Source: Actinomycetota bacterium
Lineage (GTDB): Bacteria; Actinomycetota; Geothermincolia; Geothermincolales; RBG-13-55-18
Reading direction: 5' to 3'
Assembly: GCA_013178005.1 (NCBI GenBank)
Contig: JABLXL010000045.1
Location: forward strand, 4,438 to 68,437
DNA: 64,000 nt
The notes beneath the pieces were generated by a model. The model had not been told where the DNA came from. It did no database searches and worked only from the letters and a program-made list of their open reading frames with translations. Each line of letters opens with the position of its first letter. Positions within the stretch are counted from its first letter, which is position 1. Of this stretch, positions 11,873 to 64,000 are shown in pieces. Position numbers and translations under genes: made by a program.

Positions 11873-12706
11873 ATGATAACCGCGAACCTGCTCCTCGACG
11901 CCCTGCGCGACCTCTGGGAGGGCTTCATCACCAGGCTCCCCTCCCTGCTCACGGGACTCGTCGTGTTCATCGCCTTCTATTTCCTTGCGCGAGGGGTCCG
12001 TTTCGTGATCGCCCGCTCCCTGAAGCGCGTGAAGGCATCGGAGCACGCGGCGAGACTGGTATCCCGGCTGGGGTTCATCGCGACCATGGTCGTGGGCGGA
12101 CTGGTGGGGTTGGGGGTGATGGGCGTGAACGCAGGCGCCCTGGTGGCTTCGCTTGGATTGGTGAGCGTGGGCATCGGCTTCGCCCTCAAGGACGTGGTGG
12201 AGAACTTCCTAGCTGGCATCATCCTCATCCTGCAGAGGCCCTTCGTGGTCGGGGACGTGGTACGCTTCGGCGATGTGGAAGGCACCGTCGAGGATGTCAG
12301 GGTCAGGGACACCGTTATCCGCACCTACGATGGACGCCAGGTGTTCGTCCCCAACGCGAACATCTTCCGCACCGCCTTGATCAACAACAACCGCAACCGC
12401 AGGAGGCGGCTTGATTTCGGGGTGAGCATAGCCTACCCGGAGGATATAGCCGCCGCGCTGTCCACGGCCGCCGCCGCCCTGGCCGGAGTGGAGGGAATCC
12501 TCGCCGATCCCGCGCCGCTGGTGGTGGTGGAGTCGCTGGCCGAGAGCTCCGTTTCCCTCCGGGCTTATTTCTGGGTGGACCCGGAGTGCGTGAGCATCCT
12601 GGAGGTGAAGTCCCAGGCGATCGCCGCCGCCAAGCGCGCCCTGGAGGAGGCCGGGATCGAGATACCCTACCCGGTTCTTACCGTAAGGAGCGGCAAGCCC
12701 TCGTGA
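11873..12706 (+). CDS. mscS: Small-conductance mechanosensitive channel (MscS family)
   Basis: Three TM segments, GIGFALKDVVENFLAG, RPFVVGD, EGTVEDVRVRDT, DGRQVFVPN. Confidence 0.92.
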   Translation: MITANLLLDALRDLWEGFITRLPSLLTGLVVFIAFYFLARGVRFVIARSLKRVKASEHAARLVSRLGFIATMVVGGLVGLGVMGVNAGALVASLGLVSVGIGFALKDVVENFLAGIILILQRPFVVGDVVRFGDVEGTVEDVRVRDTVIRTYDGRQVFVPNANIFRTALINNNRNRRRRLDFGVSIAYPEDIAAALSTAAAALAGVEGILADPAPLVVVESLAESSVSLRAYFWVDPECVSILEVKSQAIAAAKRALEEAGIEIPYPVLTVRSGKPS

Positions 12707-12749
12707 AGGCCGACCACGGCCGGCTTATTGTGCCCTTCATCAGCGCGAT

Positions 12750-13769
12750 TTAGCAGAGGGCGATGTCCAGACGTCGCGCCAGCTCCACGGCCGCGAGCCT
12801 CTCCTCCCCCGTAAGCCTGCGATCCAGCTCGGGATATAAGGCGGCGCGATACTCCGGGCGGTACTGGAACATGAGGTTGAAATAGACACCGGGGATGTTC
12901 TCGGCCACCCATGCCATAATCATTGCCGTGCAGCAATCCAGGTGATCGGGGATCAGGAGCTGCCGGAGCATGACTTCCCCCTGGCGGTGGGCGGTTCGAA
13001 AGTTGCGGCTCACCACCTTGAAATAATCCTCGACGTCGGACAAGCGCTTCGCGCAGGCGTCGTTTCCGTAACGGAAATCACCAAGGTAGACGTCCATGAC
13101 CCCTTCGAGGAGACGCATGGCCTCCAGGGAGGTGTACATGTTCGAGTTCCAGACCATGGGCAGGTGCCTGCCGTCGTCCCCCAGCAGGATTATGGTGTCC
13201 AGGATGGTATGGAGATTGGGGTCGGGGTTGCCTCCCACGAAGTTGGCGTTGCGCGACCCCTGGCGGAGGCCTTCGCGCAGGCCTCGGGCGAGGAGATCGG
13301 GGTCGGCAGGGCTTCCGGAGCGCGCGTCCATGGCAATGTCCCAGTTCTGGCAATATACGCAGTGAAAGGTGCAGCCGGAGAAGAAGACGGTGTGCGAGGG
13401 GACGAGCTCGGGCTCCTCCCCGAAATGGAGGAACATGGAGGCGACACGCGACTCGTCTCCAACCCCGCAATAGCCGCGCTCGCCCGCGGTGCGGTCCACC
13501 CCGCAACGCCGCTCGCACATGTGGCACGAGGAGAGCATGCGGCGGGCAAGGGCGGCCTTGAGGTCCAGGAGGGTGGGGCCGTCGACCGGGCCGGGCTCTT
13601 CGCCCCCCGAGAGCAGGCGGCGGAAGGTCTCCATGGCGGAATGGTGGCACGACCACAGTTCTTCCTCTGGCATGCCCTCGATGTCACCCGGGCCCGCCGC
13701 CACTCGTGAGGCCAGCCAGTGGCGCGCCGGCCGCCTACCCTCCAGGATGGAGAAATAGTATTCCAGCAT
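12750..13769 (-). CDS. Radical SAM protein, PflX/PFL-activating-enzyme-like
   Basis: CHMCERRCGVDR, FFSGCTFHCVYCQNWDI (CxxxCxxC), NFVGGNP, WNSNMY. Confidence 0.85.
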   Translation of the reverse strand: MLEYYFSILEGRRPARHWLASRVAAGPGDIEGMPEEELWSCHHSAMETFRRLLSGGEEPGPVDGPTLLDLKAALARRMLSSCHMCERRCGVDRTAGERGYCGVGDESRVASMFLHFGEEPELVPSHTVFFSGCTFHCVYCQNWDIAMDARSGSPADPDLLARGLREGLRQGSRNANFVGGNPDPNLHTILDTIILLGDDGRHLPMVWNSNMYTSLEAMRLLEGVMDVYLGDFRYGNDACAKRLSDVEDYFKVVSRNFRTAHRQGEVMLRQLLIPDHLDCCTAMIMAWVAENIPGVYFNLMFQYRPEYRAALYPELDRRLTGEERLAAVELARRLDIALC

Positions 13770-54315: not shown

Positions 54316-55140
54316 TCAATGGACCCTGGAGAAGATATCGTCCAAGGTATCCAGCAGGTCGTCTATGGAATAACCCTTGTCAAGCAGCAGCGGCGCGGTC
54401 TCCAGCCAGCCCACCAGCATGTAGCTGGCGACCTCCGAGTTGATGGGGGGGATGAGCCCCTCCTTCACCGCCTTGTTGATGTCCCGTTGCACCGTCTTGG
54501 CCACGGAGGCATATATCTCCCGCCGCTTGGCCTCGAGGCGGGGATCGTCCTCCATGCTCCCATGCAGCACGTGCAGTATGTCCAGGAACTCGGGATGGTA
54601 TCTCAGCACCGCCTCGCCCCTCATCCTCAACCGCTTGAGGGGGTTCTGTTCGTGCTTTATTTCCTCCCATACCCCGCTGAACATGGCCTGGAAGACTTGG
54701 TCCACGCATTCGAGGAACATGGCTTTCTTGGATGGGAAATAAAGGTAGAAAGTGCTGTGGCCCAGGCCGACCGCCCTGGTGATGTCGCTGATGCGCGTCC
54801 TGTGGTACCCCTTGCGGGCGAACACCTCCACCGCCTTCTCCATGATATGGGCTTTCTTGTCGGCGGAAGGGGAGGCCTCTTCCGCTCCGGCTTTTTCCCA
54901 TCCCCTCGGGTTCTCCTTCATCTCCCTGATCAGGGCAAGGGGATAACCTTCCTCCTGCAGCACGCGTATGCGCCTCAACTCCTCGATGTGCTCCACATCG
55001 TAATATGCCATGGTTTTTCCGGTGCGGCGGGGAGGGGAGAGCAGCCCCTCTCGCAGGTAGTAATGGATGGTGCTGCGGCCGATGCCGGAGATCTTTTCAA
55101 GATCGGATATCCTGAGCGGACGGCCCTCTTCTCGATCCAT
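54316..55140 (-). CDS. MerR-HTH / TetR fusion transcriptional regulator
   Basis: LRISDLEKISGIGRSTIHYYLREGLL (MerR HTH) followed by KAVEVFARKGYHRTRISDITRAVGLGHSTFYLYF (TetR HTH). Confidence 0.9.
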   Translation of the reverse strand: MDREEGRPLRISDLEKISGIGRSTIHYYLREGLLSPPRRTGKTMAYYDVEHIEELRRIRVLQEEGYPLALIREMKENPRGWEKAGAEEASPSADKKAHIMEKAVEVFARKGYHRTRISDITRAVGLGHSTFYLYFPSKKAMFLECVDQVFQAMFSGVWEEIKHEQNPLKRLRMRGEAVLRYHPEFLDILHVLHGSMEDDPRLEAKRREIYASVAKTVQRDINKAVKEGLIPPINSEVASYMLVGWLETAPLLLDKGYSIDDLLDTLDDIFSRVH

Positions 55141-55403: not shown

Positions 55404-56606
55404 ATGACCAGCGGCGAGTTCGCCATCATCGGCACCGGCGAGGTGCCCTGCGGCAACTACCCCGAGCGCTCGGAGTTCGAGATCGCCTACACCGTGGCAC
55501 GGGAGGCCATCCGCGACGCGGGCATCGACGTCAAGGAGGTCGGGGCGGTGCTCTGCGCCCAGCACATCATGTCCAACCCGGAAAACGACTACAACACGGA
55601 GATGGTCTTCGGGAGGCTGCCCGAGGCCATCGGGGCCCGGGGGTGCAAGATCACCTGCATGACCTCCTCGGGAGGGGCCTCGAGCTTTTCCCTGCGCAAG
55701 ACCGCGGAGGGCATCCTGCATTCGGGAGAGACGGACACCGTGCTGGTGGTGCACGCCCAGCGCTTCTCCACCTTCACCCCCAACCAGCAGGCGAAGTATT
55801 TCTCCATCGCCGGCTCGGACGTGGAGTGGGAAGTCCCCTACGGCATGACCTACAACGCCCTGGCGGCCATGGTCACCCAGGCCTACATGGCCTACACCGG
55901 CACCACCATCGAGCAGGTGGCCTCGGTGTGCGTGGCCAACCGCCGCTGGGCCATGCTGCAGCCCAACGCCATGTTCAACCAGAAGGAGATCACGGTGGAG
56001 AAGGTGGTCAACGCGCGCATGGTCTCCTACCCCCTCACCACCCTCATGTGCAACGTGCTCGCCGACGGGGGCAGCGCCTTCGTCATGACCACGGCGGAGA
56101 AGGCGAAAAAGGTCACAGGCAAGCCCGTCTACATCCTGGGCGAGGCCTCCGACTACTCCCACCGCACCATCACCCGGGCCGGGATGCGGGATTTCGCCAC
56201 CATGGCCGAGTACCTCTCCCCCATCGCCAGGCTGGCCTTCGAGCGCGCCGGCCTGGGGCCGGAGGACATGGACATCTACCAGATCTACGGCTCCTATCCC
56301 TGCATCCAGCTCATCGTCATGGACGCCCTGGGCATGTGGGAGCCGGGCACCACGGGCGCCCTGGTGGAATCCGGGGAGACCAGCCCCGGGGGCAAGTACC
56401 CGGTGACCACCAACGGGGAGGCCCTCTCCTTCGGGCACACCGGCACCGGGGTGGGCATCGCCCTGCTGGTGGAATCGGTGCGCCAGCTGCAGGGCAAGGC
56501 GGGAAAGGCCCAGGTGGAAGGGGCGCGCTTCCTCATCGAGAACACCGGCGGAGGCGCCTTCATGGACTGCCATTTCACCGTCATGGGCAACGAGATACCG
56601 GGCTAG
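55404..56606 (+). CDS. Thiolase-superfamily protein (SCP-x/Ltp2-like)
   Basis: AIIGTGE, ADGGSAFV, PVYILG, AGLGPEDMD, PVTTNGEALSFGH, VRQLQG..G..QV; followed by DUF35. Confidence 0.85.
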   Translation: MTSGEFAIIGTGEVPCGNYPERSEFEIAYTVAREAIRDAGIDVKEVGAVLCAQHIMSNPENDYNTEMVFGRLPEAIGARGCKITCMTSSGGASSFSLRKTAEGILHSGETDTVLVVHAQRFSTFTPNQQAKYFSIAGSDVEWEVPYGMTYNALAAMVTQAYMAYTGTTIEQVASVCVANRRWAMLQPNAMFNQKEITVEKVVNARMVSYPLTTLMCNVLADGGSAFVMTTAEKAKKVTGKPVYILGEASDYSHRTITRAGMRDFATMAEYLSPIARLAFERAGLGPEDMDIYQIYGSYPCIQLIVMDALGMWEPGTTGALVESGETSPGGKYPVTTNGEALSFGHTGTGVGIALLVESVRQLQGKAGKAQVEGARFLIENTGGGAFMDCHFTVMGNEIPG

Positions 56607-56625
56607 GGGAGAGAGGAGGTCGAGC

Positions 56626-57095
56626 ATGAGCAAGCACGAGCCCATCAGCATAGAGGCCATCAAGGCGATGATGAACCTCACCGACGAGGACCTGAAGAAG
56701 CCGCTGCCCGTACCGACGAAATGGTCCCGCCCCTTCTGGGAGGCGGCGAAAGAGCACCGCCTGGTGCTCAGGAAGTGCTCCAGGTGCGGCAACATCGACC
56801 ACCCTCCCTACCTCTACTGCACCGCCTGCCAGGCCGACGAGCACGAGTGGATCGAGGCCTCCGGCAAGGGGACCCTCTTCGCCTACGCCGTCAACCACTT
56901 CGGCGTGCCCTTCCCCTTCTGGGCCGACCTGCCCTACGTGCGGGCATGGTCGACCTCGCCGAGGGGGTGCGCATGATCTCCAACATCGTGGAGTGCGACT
57001 TCGAGGAGCTCCGCAACGGCATGGAGCTGGAGGTGGTCTTCGATGACGTCTCCGACGAGATCACCCTTCCCAAGTGGCGCCCGGTGAAGAAGTGA
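56626..57095 (+). pseudogene. DUF35 (Zn-ribbon + OB-fold) protein split by a 1-nt frameshift near 56940 (possible sequencing error)
   Basis: Frame 1: SRPFWEAA, CSRC, YCTAC, ASGKGTL, LPYV; frame 2 continues MVDLAEGVRMISNIV...GMELEVVF...LPKWRP. Confidence 0.85.
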
Positions 57096-57114
57096 CGGCT
57101 GGAAAAGGAGGTCG

Positions 57115-58428
57115 ATGTTCATGGCGGAGAAGAAGGCGGCCGGGAAGACGGGGAAGAAAGAGGACTTCAAGCACCTGCTCTCGCCCATCGAGATCAAGGG
57201 GGTGGAGATACGCAACCGCATCGCCCTCGCCCCCATGAACACCCTCTTTTCCCTCGATAACCGCGGCTACGTCAACGAGCAGATCCTGGCCTACTACGCC
57301 GCCCGCGCCAAGGGGGGCTGCGGGCTCATCATCACCGAGTGCGTGCTGGGCACCCGCCTAGCCTCGCGTTTCCCCTACACCACCAACCTGCACTGCTTCA
57401 ACGCCTCGCACCTGCCGGGGTTGTACGAGGTGGCGGAGACGGTGCATTCCTTCGGCTCGGCGTGTTTCGTGCAGATGTCCATCGGTTTCGGCAGGCAGGG
57501 GCATTCGCACGCCGGCGAGCATCCTCCTGCCCCTTCCGTGGTGCCCATGATGATCAAGCCCGAGCTCATGCCCCGCGGCTTCGGCAAGGCCATAGAGACG
57601 CATCCCCAGATGATCGAGCGGGCCATGGGCGAGATGCCCTACGAGATGACGGTGGAGGAGATCCGGCGCGAGCAGGACGAGTTCGCCAACTCCTGCCGCT
57701 TCGCCATGGCCGCCCAGTTCGACGGCATCGAGCTGCACGCCCCCCACGGCTACCTGGAACACCAGTTCCTCTCCCCCATCTCCAACCGGCGCACCGACCT
57801 CTACGGCGGCAGCCTGGAGAACCGCATGCGCTTCATGGTGGAGGTCTACCTCAAGGTGCGGGAGTCGGTGGGGCACGACTACATCCTCGGCGTGCGCATG
57901 TCCGCCGACGAGCACCTTCCGGGCGGCATCACCCACGAGGAGGCGCTGGAGGTGGCCCGCACCCTGACCGCCCTGGGAGCGGATTACGTGCACCTCTCCG
58001 ACGGCTCCTACGAGGCCTTGAAGTACTTCTTCCCCGACGAGGACGGCGCCATGCTGGAGGAGGCGGCGAACTTCAAGCAGGCGGTGGGGGTGCCCGTGAT
58101 CTGCCCCTCCGTGCACGACCCGCACCTGGCCGAAGCGGCCATCGCCGGCGGAAAATGCGACCTCGTCTCCCTGGGGCGGCAGATGTTCACCGACCCCGAA
58201 TGGGGCAACAAGGTGGCGGAGGGGAGGGTGGACGACATCACCCGCTGCCTGCGTTGCAACGAGTGCCTGATGCGCACCGCCGCCGGGCTGCCGGTGCGCT
58301 GCGCGCGCAACCCCCACACCGGGCGGGAAAGGTACATGCCGGAGTACTGGCGCCGGCCCCAGAAACTGCCGCCGGTGACCAAGATGCGCGTGCCGCCCCG
58401 GCTCCCCGAGTTGAAAACGGATTTCTAG
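57115..58428 (+). CDS. NADH:flavin oxidoreductase (Old Yellow Enzyme family) with Fe-S motif
   Basis: IRNRIALAPM, YYAARAKGG, DGIELHAPHGYL, SNRRTDLYGGSLENRMRF, CLRCNEC. Confidence 0.92.
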   Translation: MFMAEKKAAGKTGKKEDFKHLLSPIEIKGVEIRNRIALAPMNTLFSLDNRGYVNEQILAYYAARAKGGCGLIITECVLGTRLASRFPYTTNLHCFNASHLPGLYEVAETVHSFGSACFVQMSIGFGRQGHSHAGEHPPAPSVVPMMIKPELMPRGFGKAIETHPQMIERAMGEMPYEMTVEEIRREQDEFANSCRFAMAAQFDGIELHAPHGYLEHQFLSPISNRRTDLYGGSLENRMRFMVEVYLKVRESVGHDYILGVRMSADEHLPGGITHEEALEVARTLTALGADYVHLSDGSYEALKYFFPDEDGAMLEEAANFKQAVGVPVICPSVHDPHLAEAAIAGGKCDLVSLGRQMFTDPEWGNKVAEGRVDDITRCLRCNECLMRTAAGLPVRCARNPHTGRERYMPEYWRRPQKLPPVTKMRVPPRLPELKTDF

Positions 58429-58447
58429 ATGCGTGCGACAGTATGCA

Positions 58448-58641
58448 TCGCGAAAGCGACAGCGACGCCCGCAGGGCGGCGCGACGGTGTCCAGCGCCTG
58501 GACGGAGCGCAGCGAGGTCCAGGCCTGGCACGCGTACATCCGGATACGCGTACATCCGGATACAGAATGCATGCGGCAGCATGCATAGCAGAAGCGACTG
58601 TGCCGCCTTCGGCACAGCGGTGCCAGGTTTTGACCTGGCAC
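58448..58641. repeat. Array of short inverted repeats plus a 16-bp tandem duplication
   Basis: Six perfect hairpins, and CGCGTACATCCGGATA x2 (58531-58562). Confidence 0.8.
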
Positions 58642-58673
58642 GCATACGTAGCAGGGCATAAAAGGAGGTCACT

Positions 58674-59483
58674 ATGCCTAACTACAACTCCATCCTCTAC
58701 GAGATAGGCGGCCCGGACGGCACCGTGTGCACCATCTCCATGAACCGCCCCGAGCAGCGTAACGCCATCAACGTGGAGATGGCGGAAGAGCTGCTGGACG
58801 CCTTCACCCGCGTGCGCGACGAGAAGGCGGTGAAGGTGGTGGTGCTCACCGGGGCCGGGAAGTCGTTCTGCGCCGGGGGCGACCTCTCCGTCCTTCCCAC
58901 CTTCGACCACTACACGGTGGTGGACTGGATGGGCCGCACCGGCCAGGGCATCGTGCGGGCCATCGCCGAGAACGAGAAGGTGGTGGTGGCCAAGGTCAAG
59001 GGGCATTGCATCGCCGGGGGCCTGGAGCTTGCCCTGGCCTGCGACCTCATCTACGCCAGCGAGAAGACGAAGTTCGGGGTGACCGAGATCACCATGGGCA
59101 TCCTCCCCGGCTGGGGAGGGACGGTGCGACTGGCGCGGAGCCTTCCCATCTTCCGCGGGCGGGAGATACTGCTCTCCGGGCGCAAAGACTACACGGCGCG
59201 CGAGTTCTACGACATGGGGTTGCTCACGCGCGTGTACCCCGAGGACGAGTTCGACGCCAAGGTGGACGAGATGGTGGCGACGCTCTGCGCCAACCCCGCC
59301 GATTCCCTGCGCATGGGCAAGGCGGTGATGAACTACTCCTTCCAGGGCCTGCCCTGGGACGCGGCCATGGCCATCGAGCGCCAGGCCGTCGCCTGGCTCT
59401 TCCACTCGGAGTTCACCGCCAACATGCGCGCCATCGCCCTGCAGGCCCTGGAGGCGATGCAGAAGAAAGGAGACGAGGCTTAG
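58674..59483 (+). CDS. Enoyl-CoA hydratase/isomerase
   Basis: MNRPEQRNA, SFCAGGDL, GHCIAGGLELALACD, FGVTEITMGILPGWGG. Confidence 0.93.
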   Translation: MPNYNSILYEIGGPDGTVCTISMNRPEQRNAINVEMAEELLDAFTRVRDEKAVKVVVLTGAGKSFCAGGDLSVLPTFDHYTVVDWMGRTGQGIVRAIAENEKVVVAKVKGHCIAGGLELALACDLIYASEKTKFGVTEITMGILPGWGGTVRLARSLPIFRGREILLSGRKDYTAREFYDMGLLTRVYPEDEFDAKVDEMVATLCANPADSLRMGKAVMNYSFQGLPWDAAMAIERQAVAWLFHSEFTANMRAIALQALEAMQKKGDEA

Positions 59484-60647
<1,164 letters not shown>

Positions 60648-60667
60648 AGGGAAGGAGGAGGAAAGCC

Positions 60668-62212
60668 ATGAACACCCTGGGCGACATACCGAGAAAGCAC
60701 GCCCGCCTGGACCCCGAGAAGGAATGCATGGTCTGCGGCGAGGTCAGGCTGACCTGGAGGGAGCTCAACCGGCGCGTCAACCGGCTGGCCAACGCCCTGG
60801 CCGGATTGGGGGTGGAAAAAGGCGCCAAGGTGGCCACCCTGGCGCTCAACTGCCACCGCCTCATCGAGATTTATTACGCCACCTCGAAGATAGGGGCGGT
60901 GACCGTGCCCCTGAACTTCCGGCTGGCGCCGGACGAGCTGGTCTACGTGATCAACCACTCCGACGCCGAGGTGCTCATTGCGGACCACAACACCATCGAG
61001 ATGGCCAAGTCGATTCTCCCGCGGCTCGAGAGCGTCCGCGAGCGCGTCGCCTTCGTGGCGCAAGCCGAGGGGTGGCGGGACTACGAGGCGCTGCTCGAGG
61101 AGGCCCCGGATACCGAGCCCGACGTGGAGGTGGACGAGGACGACCTCTGCCACATCCAGTACACCGGCGGAACCACCGGGCTGCCCAAGGGGGTGATGAT
61201 CACCCACCGCAACTATCTGACCACCGCCATAGGCATGGGCCTGGCGCTGGAGTTCCAGCCCCATTACTCCACCCTGCAGGTCCTCCCCATCTTCCACACC
61301 GCGTGGTGGCCGGTGCTCGTGCACCACCTCGCCGGATGCCGGGCGGTCATCGCCCCGCGCTTCGACTTCCAGGAGATACTGGCCACCGCCGAGAGGGAGA
61401 GGGTCACCCATATAAACATGGTGCCGGTGCTCTTCTCCTGGCTGCTCGATTTCCCCGACGCGGACAAGTACGACCTCTCCAGCATCAGGTATTTCTCCTA
61501 CGCCGGCGCCCCCATGCCCGAGGAGGTGCTCAGGCGCTGCATCGCCAGGTTCGGCCCCATCTTCCAGCAGGGCTACGGCCTCACCGAGGCCTCTCCCCTG
61601 GGCACCATGCTCTTGCAGGAGGACCAGTGCCGCCTGGAGGGGCCGCCCGAGCTGGTCCGGCGCATCAACTCCTGCGGGCGCGAGAGCCTGGTCACCGAGG
61701 TCCGGGTGGTGGACGAGGAGGACAACGACGTGCCCGTGGGGGAGATCGGCGAGATCGTCATCCGCGGCAAGAACGTGATGAAGGGATACTGGAAGGATCC
61801 GGAACTCACGGCCAGGACCCTGCGCGGCGGGTGGCTGCACACCGGCGACCTGGCCACCGTGGACGAACACGGGTTCATCTACATCGTGGACCGCAAGCAC
61901 GACATGATCATCACCGGGGGGGAGAACGTCTACCCCTTCGAGGTCGAGCAGGTGATCTACGAGCACCCCGCGGTGCTGACCGTGGCGGTGGTGGGGGTCA
62001 AAAGCGAGAAGTGGGGCGAGGAAGTGACGGCGGCGGTGGCCCTGAAGCAGGGGATGCAGGCCACGGAGGAGGAGATCATCGCCCTCTGCCGGAGCAGGAT
62101 CGCCGGCTACAAGTGCCCCAAGCGCGTGGTTTTCGTGGAGAGCATCCCCACCTCGGCCATCGGCAAGGTGCTGCGCCGCCAGGTGAGAGAGCAGCTCGAG
62201 TTGGAGAAATGA
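60668..62212 (+). CDS. Acyl-CoA synthetase (long-chain fatty acid--CoA ligase family)
   Basis: YTGGTTGLPKG, QGYGLTE, WLHTGD, DRKHDMIITGGENVYP, SAIGKVLRR. Confidence 0.95.
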   Translation: MNTLGDIPRKHARLDPEKECMVCGEVRLTWRELNRRVNRLANALAGLGVEKGAKVATLALNCHRLIEIYYATSKIGAVTVPLNFRLAPDELVYVINHSDAEVLIADHNTIEMAKSILPRLESVRERVAFVAQAEGWRDYEALLEEAPDTEPDVEVDEDDLCHIQYTGGTTGLPKGVMITHRNYLTTAIGMGLALEFQPHYSTLQVLPIFHTAWWPVLVHHLAGCRAVIAPRFDFQEILATAERERVTHINMVPVLFSWLLDFPDADKYDLSSIRYFSYAGAPMPEEVLRRCIARFGPIFQQGYGLTEASPLGTMLLQEDQCRLEGPPELVRRINSCGRESLVTEVRVVDEEDNDVPVGEIGEIVIRGKNVMKGYWKDPELTARTLRGGWLHTGDLATVDEHGFIYIVDRKHDMIITGGENVYPFEVEQVIYEHPAVLTVAVVGVKSEKWGEEVTAAVALKQGMQATEEEIIALCRSRIAGYKCPKRVVFVESIPTSAIGKVLRRQVREQLELEK

Positions 62213-62293
62213 CGCCCGGGGCGAGGCGGCGGTGAGGGCCGATGCCCCGGTATGGCGGTGCGCCGGAGGGCCATTGAGCTGAGGGGGGAGCCG

Positions 62294-64000
62294 ATGCGGA
62301 AAAGAGTGGTAAGGACGGCCTGCCGCATGTGCCACGGCGTGTGCCAGGTGCTGGTGCACCTGGAGGGGGACCGCGTGGTCAAGGTGACCGGCGACCCGGA
62401 AAGCGTCACCAGCCGCGGCTATATCTGCGCCAAGGGCAGGGCCGCGCCCGAGCTCCTGTACCATCCCGACCGCGTGCTGTATCCCCTGCGGCGGGCGGGA
62501 AGAAGGGGAGAGAACAGGTGGGAGCGCATCTCCTGGGACGAAGCCCTGGACGAGCTCGCGGCCAGGCTGGCCGCCGTGAGGGACGAGAGCGGGCCGGAGT
62601 ACGTGGGCCTGGTACAGGGGACCGGACGTCCCTACGAGAACCTCTTCAACCGCTTCGCCAATGCTTTCGGGACGCCCAACTACACCGCTCCCGCCCACCT
62701 CTGCTACCTGCCGCGCATCATGGTCAACTTCTTCAGCATGGGCTTCCCCCTCCTGCCCATATGCGACGTCTACGGGCTCGGCGGGGAGATGCCGGCGTGC
62801 GTGGTGGTGTGGGGCTGCAACATCACCGAAACCGGCGCTGCAGACGGCATGTGCGGGCACATGCTGCGGCGCGCCATCGAGGGGGCGAAGAGGGTCATCG
62901 TGGTGGATCCGAGAAGGACGGGGCCCGCCGGCAAGGCCGACCACTGGCTGCAGATCAGGCCCGGGACGGACGGGGCCCTCGCCCTGGCCATGCTCAACGT
63001 GATCGTCGCCGAGGATCTCATCGACCATTCCTTCGTGAGGGACTACACCACCGGATTCGACGAACTCGCCGAACACGTGCGGGGATTCACGCCCGAGTGG
63101 GCGGAGGGGATAACGCGCGTGGCAGCGGAGGAGATAAGGGCGGCGGCGCGCGCCTACGCCACCATAAAACCGGCGTGCATCCAGTGGGGAAACGCCGTCG
63201 ACCAGAGCATGTGCAATTTCCAGACCTCGCGGGCGCTCCTCATCCTGCGCGCCGTCACCGGGAACCTGGACCGCCCGGGGGCCGACTTCTTCCCCCCGCA
63301 GGTGCCGGGCGCTCGCCACAAGACCCCCTTCGTGGACATCGCTTTCTCCGGCATGCAGTTCCTGCCCCCGGAGAAGCGCGCCGTCAAGGTCGGCGGTTTC
63401 GACTACCCGATCATGGTGACCGTACAGTCGCCCGCCTTCTGGCGCTCCATCGCCACCGGAGAGCCGTACCGCATGCGCGCGGTATGGATCATGGGGTCCA
63501 ACCCGCTGGTCACCTCCACCCATTCCCTGGAGATCGAGGAGGCGCTGCGCAAGCTGGAGTTCGTCGCGGTCTCGGACATGTTCCTCACCCCCACCGCCCA
63601 GTACGCGGACCTCTTCCTCCCCGCCTCCACCTGGCTGGAGTACGACGAGATACACACCAGCGGCGGCCACACCTTCAGCCTCCTGGCGCGCCGCAAGGTG
63701 GCGCGGGTGGGCGACACCCTGGACGACCAGGAGGTGATCATCCGGGTGGCCAACCGGCTGGGCCTGAAGGAGGCGTTTCCCTGGAGGAGCCACCGCGAGT
63801 TGAGCGAATGGGTGCTGGAGGGCACGGGCATGAGCTTCGAGGAGTTCCTGGAGAGGGGCATCCTGGTCGGCGAACCGCGTTATCGCAAGTACGAGGACCC
63901 GGGCTTCTTCCTCACCCCTTCCGGCAAGTTCGAGATATACTGCAAGACCCTGGAAGGGATGGGAGTTAGTCCCCTTCCCGTTTACCGGGAGCCGCCCTTA
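62294..64000 (+). CDS. Molybdopterin-dependent oxidoreductase (DMSO reductase family), partial at the window end
   Basis: Manual translation: CRMCHGVC...CAKG, HPDRVLYP, RISWDEAL, VVWGCN, VVDPR, RPGTDGALA, DMFLTPTA, TPSGKFE; frame is continuous to 64000. Confidence 0.92.
   Translation, partial: MRKRVVRTACRMCHGVCQVLVHLEGDRVVKVTGDPESVTSRGYICAKGRAAPELLYHPDRVLYPLRRAGRRGENRWERISWDEALDELAARLAAVRDESGPEYVGLVQGTGRPYENLFNRFANAFGTPNYTAPAHLCYLPRIMVNFFSMGFPLLPICDVYGLGGEMPACVVVWGCNITETGAADGMCGHMLRRAIEGAKRVIVVDPRRTGPAGKADHWLQIRPGTDGALALAMLNVIVAEDLIDHSFVRDYTTGFDELAEHVRGFTPEWAEGITRVAAEEIRAAARAYATIKPACIQWGNAVDQSMCNFQTSRALLILRAVTGNLDRPGADFFPPQVPGARHKTPFVDIAFSGMQFLPPEKRAVKVGGFDYPIMVTVQSPAFWRSIATGEPYRMRAVWIMGSNPLVTSTHSLEIEEALRKLEFVAVSDMFLTPTAQYADLFLPASTWLEYDEIHTSGGHTFSLLARRKVARVGDTLDDQEVIIRVANRLGLKEAFPWRSHRELSEWVLEGTGMSFEEFLERGILVGEPRYRKYEDPGFFLTPSGKFEIYCKTLEGMGVSPLPVYREPPL

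Follow-up and report, generated by a model that had tools for sequence, protein, structure and literature searches.

A conserved acyl-CoA gene cluster of uncultured anaerobes with a cysteine-less thiolase-like protein and a DUF35 partner, a predicted retro-aldolase

Gene content and conservation of the cluster

The window analysed here, a 64-kb stretch of DNA, is contig C40 of a 3.6-Mb, 97%-complete metagenome-assembled genome (MAG) of an uncultured anaerobic actinobacterium, and it ends in a gene cluster built around a thiolase-like protein that lacks the nucleophilic cysteine of thiolases and is followed by a DUF35 gene. Judged by the thiolase-like gene, the host is most closely related to MAGs of Candidatus Solincola and Geothermincola within the Actinomycetota. 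Seven genes, all on the plus strand, run from position 55404 to the window end (Table 1). A sequence-only reading of the same DNA had listed these genes in this order, which open reading frame (ORF) and Pfam/NCBIfam checks confirmed, and all the motifs it had quoted are present, i.e., TSSGGASS (residues 87-94), IYGSY (294-298) and ENTGGG (379-384) in the thiolase-like protein and LNPER in the acyl-CoA dehydrogenase (ACAD). The start of the thiolase-like gene at 55404 is fixed by the lengths of its homologs (395-402 aa). The intergenic gaps measure 0-39 nt, apart from a 245-nt spacer between the genes for an Old Yellow Enzyme (OYE) and an enoyl-CoA hydratase (ECH), and the gap before the molybdenum/tungsten (Mo/W) enzyme is at most 81 nt under the database gene call. 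A sigma-70-like site lies near the divergent regulator (55205-55177, minus strand), and the regulator belongs to the unit, since almost every related locus has a regulator of this kind upstream of its thiolase-like gene. We infer that the stretch from 54316 to the contig end is best explained as one regulated catabolic operon for a carboxylic acid.

Table 1. Features of the gene cluster in the window
Feature	Position	Strand	Basis or remark
MerR_1 + TetR_N fusion regulator	54316..55140	-	Pfam; divergent to thiolase-like gene
Cys-less SCP2-thiolase-like protein, 400 aa, predicted retro-aldolase subunit	55404..56606	+	Pfam Thiolase_C_1 only
Stand-alone DUF35 (Cys4 zinc ribbon and OB fold), 1-nt deletion 56941^56942	56626..57095	+	zf-ChsH2, OB_ChsH2_C
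Truncated Fe-S OYE, FMN domain and Cys-rich C-terminal segment	57115..58428	+	Pfam Oxidored_FMN
OYE-ECH spacer, 245 nt, dispersed repeat	58429..58673		direct and inverted repeats
Crotonase-family ECH	58674..59483	+	Pfam ECH_1, E 7.6e-53
ACAD, helix-G Glu, isovaleryl-CoA dehydrogenase (IVD)/long-chain acyl-CoA dehydrogenase (LCAD) type	59484..60647	+	three ACAD Pfam domains
AMP-forming acyl-CoA ligase	60668..62212	+	Pfam AMP-binding, AMP-binding_C; NCBIfam PRK06187
Cytoplasmic bis-molybdopterin guanine dinucleotide (bis-MGD) Mo/W enzyme, acetylene-hydratase-like	62252..64000, cut at window end	+	best solved relative 2e7z

The window proteins were mapped onto 30 related loci, with Pfam calls for four further ones. 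A conserved core of regulator, thiolase-like gene, DUF35, crotonase, ACAD and ligase recurs in about 30 loci of Actinomycetota and Desulfobacterota, and the clusters fall into two paralogous types. Type A, to which the window cluster belongs, has a crotonase 67-89% identical to that of the window, one or two OYE genes, whose position in the cluster varies among relatives, and the Mo/W enzyme; type B has a crotonase of only 38-41% identity and no Mo/W enzyme. A 3HCDH-type hydroxyacyl-CoA dehydrogenase was found nowhere in the window and in only one of 32 related loci, 5 kb outside the cluster. The genome holds five copies of this dehydrogenase. Thiolase-fold genes are matched 17 times in it, and one or more groups of them lie near a 3HCDH gene on contig C30. 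The cluster thus offers all steps of beta-oxidation except the oxidation of the 3-hydroxyl, together with a "thiolase" that would be unable to form an acyl-enzyme, and this combination is our main argument for retro-aldol cleavage.

The thiolase-like protein, its family and its predicted DUF35 partner

A profile alignment to 7yvy and 6esq, free of gaps, sets Gly91, the second Gly of TSSGGASS, opposite the nucleophilic Cys of thiolases, and the same register was given by a MAFFT alignment of 119 sequences including 18 canonical Cys-bearing representatives, mostly with xxCASG and HDCF. A pairwise HMMER register with the Cys opposite Thr87 needed four gap positions and was dropped in favour of the gapless match at Gly91 in the profile and multiple alignments. 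In the AlphaFold2 model of the protein (pLDDT 94.8) strand 83-87 is followed by a helix starting at residue 90, which is the geometry of a nucleophilic elbow. The Gly91 register is also consistent with the side-chain aldolase Sal of Comamonas testosteroni (CtSal), for which Gly at the thiolase Cys position has been published (PMC12329534).

A word-indexed search returned 495 matches to the thiolase-like protein, the best 120 of which share 71-95% identity with it, and conservation was counted over 121 aligned members. Gly91 is present in all of them and Cys at this position in none. The sequence-only reading had called the enzyme Cys-less and had named the Cys of CMTS as the residue that could overturn this claim. 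The claim held: Cys85 lies six residues upstream of Gly91, on the strand and off the nucleophile position, and is Cys in 65, Ala in 53 and Gly in 3 members, so that Ala or Gly occupies it in 56 of 121 (46%). Position 381, that of the classical CxG motif, carries Cys in 78, Thr in 38 and Ser in 5 members, with Thr381 in the window protein, and the choice between Cys and Thr does not track cluster type A or B. Because both Cys85 and position 381 vary within the family, neither can be essential. Invariant residues are Gly90, Gly91, Ser93, Cys216, Tyr295, Tyr298, Pro299, Asn337, Glu339, His345, Asp388 and His390; position 297 is Ser in 99 and Ala in 22 members, and the window protein reads Y-G-S-Y here.

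The protein has the fold of SCP2-thiolases and retains the His of their GHP loop as the invariant His345, while it lacks both the nucleophilic Cys (CxS/CASG, at the start of helix N-alpha3) and the acid/base Cys of HDCF. Every score against the NCBIfam thiolase models fell far under the cut-off. In a Foldseek search its model matched 6et9, 9myr, 6ok1 and 7pxp with template modelling (TM) scores of 0.82-0.87, 6et9 being the top match.

The family is tight, with at least 121 members of 66-95% identity in two phyla, comprising uncultured subsurface Actinomycetota and Desulfobacterota. Among 50%-identity cluster representatives an exhaustive search placed just one in the family, at 72%, and the next full-length sequence is 47% identical. 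A tree of 114 representatives shows the family on a long stem with full support, within a clade defined by Gly91 and Y-x-[AS]-Y and away from the thiolases with Cys91 and HDCF. All members are labelled "acetyl-CoA acetyltransferase" in databases, and this label misleads metabolic reconstructions of these anaerobes.

The DUF35 gene had been read as one ORF, which did not stand, as its zinc-ribbon part (56626-56976, zf-ChsH2) lies in frame 1 and its OB-fold part (to 57095, OB_ChsH2_C) in frame 2, a break that the earlier reading overlooked. Relative to three orthologous loci (L006, L008 and L024) one base is lacking, the T of a CTG codon at 56941^56942. The gene is intact in relatives (147-151 aa), and in all mapped loci it stands alone directly after the thiolase-like gene. 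Programmed frameshifting was rejected, as there is no slippery run around the missing base and the orthologs are in frame.

A second contig of the genome (C23, positions 1-1723, L042) begins inside another thiolase-like gene that shares 98.6% DNA identity with 55410-55626 of the window (217 nt) and is preceded by a MerR/TetR regulator of only 34.5% identity. Near-identical thiolase-like genes next to differing regulators therefore show that this genome has two paralogous clusters, as in several relatives, and comparison of the two sequences indicates concerted evolution or gene conversion acting between otherwise diverged clusters. The thiolase-like gene is much more conserved than its neighbours, with 86-89% identity to the query even in type B clusters of related Actinomycetota MAGs, which fits concerted evolution of two copies. 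Since the assembly is broken at these near-identical genes, a consensus error in the nearby DUF35 gene is plausible and at least as likely as a real pseudogene.

Accessory enzymes and the molybdenum/tungsten enzyme

The OYE can be aligned to the N-terminal portions of NCR 6qkg (residues 17-415) and 2,4-dienoyl-CoA reductase 1ps9. It is truncated, without the FAD/NAD(P)H domain, and the Cys-rich C-terminal segment seen in its translation was read as a [4Fe-4S] motif. In the translated ECH, Glu residues occur in GGLE and VTEITMG, presumably the two catalytic Glu sites of crotonases. When the ACAD was compared with 4iv6, the canonical C-terminal Glu (GEGT) was found replaced by Pro and a Glu was found in LNPER, presumably the counterpart of IVD Glu254. 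The ACAD thus carries a helix-G Glu in place of the C-terminal-loop Glu, the IVD/LCAD arrangement, which is typical of enzymes for bulky or 3-branched substrates. The ligase scores 554.7 bits against NCBIfam PRK06187 (cut-off 476 bits).

The spacer between the OYE and ECH genes is built from two diverged copies of a hairpin-containing unit about 100-110 nt long. Matches to this unit number 23 in the genome, spread over more than 12 contigs, and they often form tandem arrays of two or three copies and lie at contig ends. The spacer is therefore a dispersed intergenic repeat, similar to repetitive extragenic palindromes (REP) or miniature inverted-repeat transposable elements (MITE), and not an RNA element specific to the operon.

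On the full contig (L031) the Mo/W enzyme is 722 aa long from the ATG at 62252, or 708 aa in the database gene call, and the contig ends about 250 nt after the gene. Its match to acetylene hydratase 2e7z (E 8.3e-111, residues 22-715) is well ahead of those to thiosulfate reductase and formate dehydrogenase H. A search of the ESM Atlas with this protein returned only generic "molybdopterin oxidoreductase" clusters. Like the acetylene hydratase of Pelobacter acetylenicus, it has about 720 aa, one N-terminal [4Fe-4S] motif and the Cys that binds the metal, and its translation leaves no room for a twin-arginine translocation (TAT) leader before the Fe-S motif, the hydratase likewise having none. 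Both the Mo/W Cys ligand (family alignment position 137) and the C-x2-C-x3-C cluster motif are invariant, but where acetylene hydratase has its catalytic Asp13, adjacent to the second cluster Cys, 119 of 120 relatives carry His. The catechol dehydroxylases Dadh, Hcdh and Cldh have acetylene hydratase as their closest characterised relative, and dehydroxylases of the Gordonibacter type are small and soluble, without a TAT leader (PMC7028382). The likeness of the Mo/W enzyme to this group is a lead from its published description. Papers on anaerobic benzene degradation in which acetylene hydratase and thiolases are named proved to have no bearing on the cluster, and those naming Geothermincolia did not look relevant either. 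Lacking the Asp of acetylene hydratase, the enzyme could equally be of the reductive dehydroxylase type.

The sequence-only reading had tied the Mo enzyme to the operon, as an enzyme that may hydroxylate or hydrate the substrate. This link is borne out by conserved synteny, as the enzyme accompanies the type A cluster in nine loci, which belong to Actinomycetota, to a "Syntrophomonadaceae" MAG and to Deltaproteobacterium RBG_13_61_14; its nearest solved relative is a hydratase. Genes inserted or appended in relatives encode an MtaA-like URO-D methyltransferase, a corrinoid protein, Amidohydro_2, and FAD_binding_4 followed by an Fe-S protein with CCG domains.

Several further Mo-enzyme genes and cluster variants were seen during this mapping. 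A related Actinomycetota MAG (L009, 10040-10681) keeps, beside the cluster, a Mo-enzyme remnant in which residues 11-49 are joined almost directly to residues 402-582, with about 350 codons deleted. Three other Mo-enzyme paralogs on contigs C12, C25 and C6 of the host genome (L032-L034) contain one in-frame TGA each and are probably selenocysteine enzymes of the formate dehydrogenase type. In a Dehalococcoidia locus (L037, 5667-12130) two acetylene-hydratase-like enzymes, 46% and 64% identical to that of the window, flank FAD_binding_3 and Amidohydro_2 genes near a TRAP transporter and two ACAD genes, with no thiolase-like gene. In a deltaproteobacterial version of the cluster (L040) a PapA5-like condensation-domain acyltransferase (1588-2982) precedes the thiolase-like gene, and a 440-aa protein with no Pfam or NCBIfam match (12127-13449) follows the Mo enzyme.

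Predicted route, alternatives and comparison with known systems

The best-supported reading of the cluster, to which we give a somewhat better than even chance, is that the thiolase-like protein and DUF35 cleave a hydroxyacyl-CoA by retro-aldol chemistry. The ligase would convert the acid to its CoA thioester, the IVD-type ACAD would introduce the 2,3 double bond, and the crotonase would add water to give a 3-hydroxyacyl-CoA. The complex of thiolase-like protein and DUF35 could then split the C2-C3 bond into acetyl-CoA and an aldehyde or ketone, without an acyl-enzyme and without a 3-oxo intermediate. Tyr295, the counterpart of Tyr302 of Sal and Tyr294 of Ltp2, would deprotonate the 3-hydroxyl, while His345 and Asn337, both kept from thiolases, would serve to polarise the thioester and to stabilise the enolate; neither the Cys of Sal nor the Tyr of Ltp2 would be the donor of the proton to C2. 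The truncated Fe-S OYE may act as a reductase on a conjugated double bond, either in the substrate or in the product. The substrate may also be modified by the Mo/W enzyme, ahead of or following side-chain cleavage, through hydration or hydroxylation, or through reductive removal of an aromatic hydroxyl. Aldol-type C-C cleavage had already been proposed by the sequence-only reading, and it agrees with everything we found that bears on it, i.e., no nucleophilic Cys in 121 members, the invariant Tyr295, the unconserved Cys of CMTS and the missing 3HCDH gene; the reaction, the sequence of its steps and the substrate are predictions.

Several observations weigh against retro-aldol cleavage. The acid residues of both characterised aldolases are missing, Cys304 of Sal being replaced by Ser/Ala297 and Tyr344 of Ltp2 by His345. 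Ltp2 and Sal work with a hydratase of the MaoC type, whereas that of the cluster is a crotonase, and the assembly shows a frameshift in DUF35. Short-chain dehydrogenase/reductase (SDR)-type dehydrogenases occur in a few loci, one after the ligase in L003 and two downstream in L040. Moreover, the Foldseek ranking does not split aldolases from thiolases, as all DUF35-partnered structures gave the same range of TM scores.

With both acid residues gone, the pair could have a role other than that of an aldolase, either as a non-catalytic scaffold or in other enolate chemistry such as decarboxylation of a malonyl-type CoA. There are precedents for both, since DUF35 is a scaffold in the archaeal thiolase/HMG-CoA synthase (HMGCS) complex, our top Foldseek match 6et9, and the trypanosome protein TbSLP, also without the nucleophilic Cys, gives only slow malonyl-CoA decarboxylation (PMC12329534). 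We nevertheless consider such a role distinctly unlikely: the invariance of Tyr295, Tyr298, Glu339, His345 and Asn337 at 66-95% identity across two phyla favours catalysis, the cluster has no second thiolase-fold or HMGCS-like gene to be scaffolded, and its ACAD and hydratase would yield a 3-hydroxyacyl-CoA and not a malonyl-type substrate. Far less probable still is a working thiolase with another Cys as nucleophile (Cys85, Cys81, Cys216 or Cys381), even though Cys216 is invariant, Cys81 is 97.5% conserved and most members have a Cys at position 381 of the CxG motif. Cys85 is replaced by Ala or Gly in almost half of the family, position 381 is Thr in the window protein and 38 of the 121 members, and Cys216 also occurs in 14 of the 18 canonical representatives with Cys91, and hence has not taken over as nucleophile. 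Cys81 immediately precedes strand 83-87 and is ten residues N-terminal to the Gly91 elbow, and no dehydrogenase that would form a 3-oxoacyl-CoA is encoded in the cluster.

Two further alternatives concern parts of the operon. The module might be a recent pseudogene in this genome, with a real frameshift in DUF35 and no aldolase complex made. The base missing against all three orthologs would agree with this, as would the absence of a second close DUF35 from the assembled genome, where the other copies are at most 35% identical. However, the 50 codons past the lesion still share 66-90% protein identity with the orthologs and show no other lesion, and the assembly broke or collapsed exactly at the thiolase repeat, where an error of the consensus is plausible, thus we find the loss of function rather unlikely. 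That the Mo enzyme is an unrelated neighbour with no part in the acyl-CoA pathway appears unlikely as well. Half of the related clusters, those of type B, do without it, and close homologs occur without the thiolase-like gene, beside unrelated genes in L039 and with other ACADs in L037. On the other hand, the Mo gene begins 39 to 81 nt after the ligase in the same orientation, and its retention with the type A cluster in nine loci extends over Actinomycetota, the "Syntrophomonadaceae" MAG and Deltaproteobacteria.

For the predicted retro-aldol cleavage, the "branched or ring acyl-CoA" of the sequence-only reading is one option only, and the accessory genes of the relatives point rather to methoxylated or hydroxylated aromatic acids, as hinted by the corrinoid methyltransferase and Amidohydro_2 genes beside the Mo enzyme. 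A substrate such as a methoxylated or hydroxylated phenylpropionate can be named only tentatively, the dehydroxylases having been compared through the literature only. We hypothesize, well short of even confidence, that type A could be an as yet unrecognised anaerobic route for phenylpropanoids from plants or lignin (e.g., hydroferulate, hydrocaffeate), in which ring hydroxyls would be edited by a corrinoid O-demethylase (in relatives) and the soluble Mo enzyme, e.g., through reductive dehydroxylation of a catechol, and the side chain would be taken off as acetyl-CoA in a CoA-dependent retro-aldol step by a third mechanistic class of thiolase-fold aldolase relying on Tyr295 and His345, without the Cys of Sal or the Tyr of Ltp2.

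That a Cys-less thiolase fold with DUF35 can act as an aldolase is an established concept; the new elements are a definition of the family at residue level, evidence that 3HCDH is missing across loci, the organisation in two paralogs and the conserved association with an acetylene-hydratase-like enzyme of the His variant. The conserved pairing with this Mo/W enzyme provides gene context for finding the function of a large uncharacterised enzyme group. To our knowledge, thiolase-fold aldolases are known from just two steroid-degrading systems, with a different catalytic pair in each. As the family keeps only the shared Tyr, its structure and kinetics would reveal a third way of performing aldol chemistry in a thiolase active site.

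The closest parallel is the bile-acid C5 side-chain retro-aldolase CtSal with its DUF35 partner CtShy (9myr, PMC12329534), which has the same SCP2-thiolase fold (TM 0.84), Gly at the nucleophile position within GGASS and a zinc-ribbon DUF35 as partner; its reaction comes after those of an ACAD and a hydratase, with no dehydrogenase step in between. In the alignment to 9myr, CtSal Tyr302, Asp303, Cys304, Tyr305, Gln347 and Gln352 correspond to Tyr295, Gly296, Ser297, Tyr298, Glu339 and His345 of the window protein; the equivalences to Ltp2 were taken from the Sal paper (PMC12329534). Catalysis in CtSal depends on Tyr302 and Cys304 of YDCY, and in TcLtp2 on Tyr294 of YDHF and Tyr344, the latter equivalent to Gln352 of Sal; mutation of Tyr302 abolishes Sal activity, that of the equivalent Tyr likewise in Ltp2, and both C304S and C304A of Sal are inactive (PMC12329534). 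Of the Sal pair the family thus keeps the base, as the invariant Tyr295, and has Ser or Ala in place of the acid, the motif being YG[SA]Y instead of YDCY, while Glu339 and His345 replace Gln347 and Gln352. In CtSal the DUF35 is fused to a MaoC hydratase, whereas here it is a free protein beside a crotonase, in an anaerobe and outside any steroid gene context.

The steroid C3 side-chain retro-aldolase TcLtp2 with the DUF35 of ChsH2 (6ok1) also shares the fold (TM 0.82), the Tyr and the DUF35 partner. Its paired tyrosines are not retained, as Tyr344 is replaced by His345, in agreement with the sequence-only reading that only one Ltp2-like Tyr is apparent; YDHF is replaced by YGSY, and the window operon has a crotonase and a free-standing DUF35 in place of the MaoC-type hydratase that carries DUF35 (ChsH1-ChsH2). 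As far as these alignments go, the predicted catalytic set is a third kind on the same scaffold, with the shared Tyr kept and both recognised acids gone. The best solved sequence match is 4u4e, a putative thiolase of Sphaerobacter thermophilus from structural genomics (E 2.9e-42, profile E 8.8e-133), which shares the GG of the nucleophile site and the His of GHP and carries Y-D-S-F, but is only about 28% identical and keeps the Asp of YDxF. PhlABC-type acyltransferases need a catalytic Cys in PhlC and the partner PhlA; this assignment was rejected, as Gly91 occupies the nucleophile position and the cluster has no second thiolase-fold gene. The benzoylsuccinyl-CoA thiolase BbsAB (7pxp) and the archaeal acetoacetyl-CoA thiolase/HMGCS/DUF35 complex (6et9) also pair an SCP2-type subunit with DUF35 and come from anaerobes. 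They are, however, true thiolases that act downstream of a 3-hydroxyacyl-CoA dehydrogenase. Where the window protein has Gly91, the profile alignment shows the nucleophilic Cys retained in the archaeal thiolases 7yvy and 6esq, and by pairwise alignment BbsB has a Cys in this segment.

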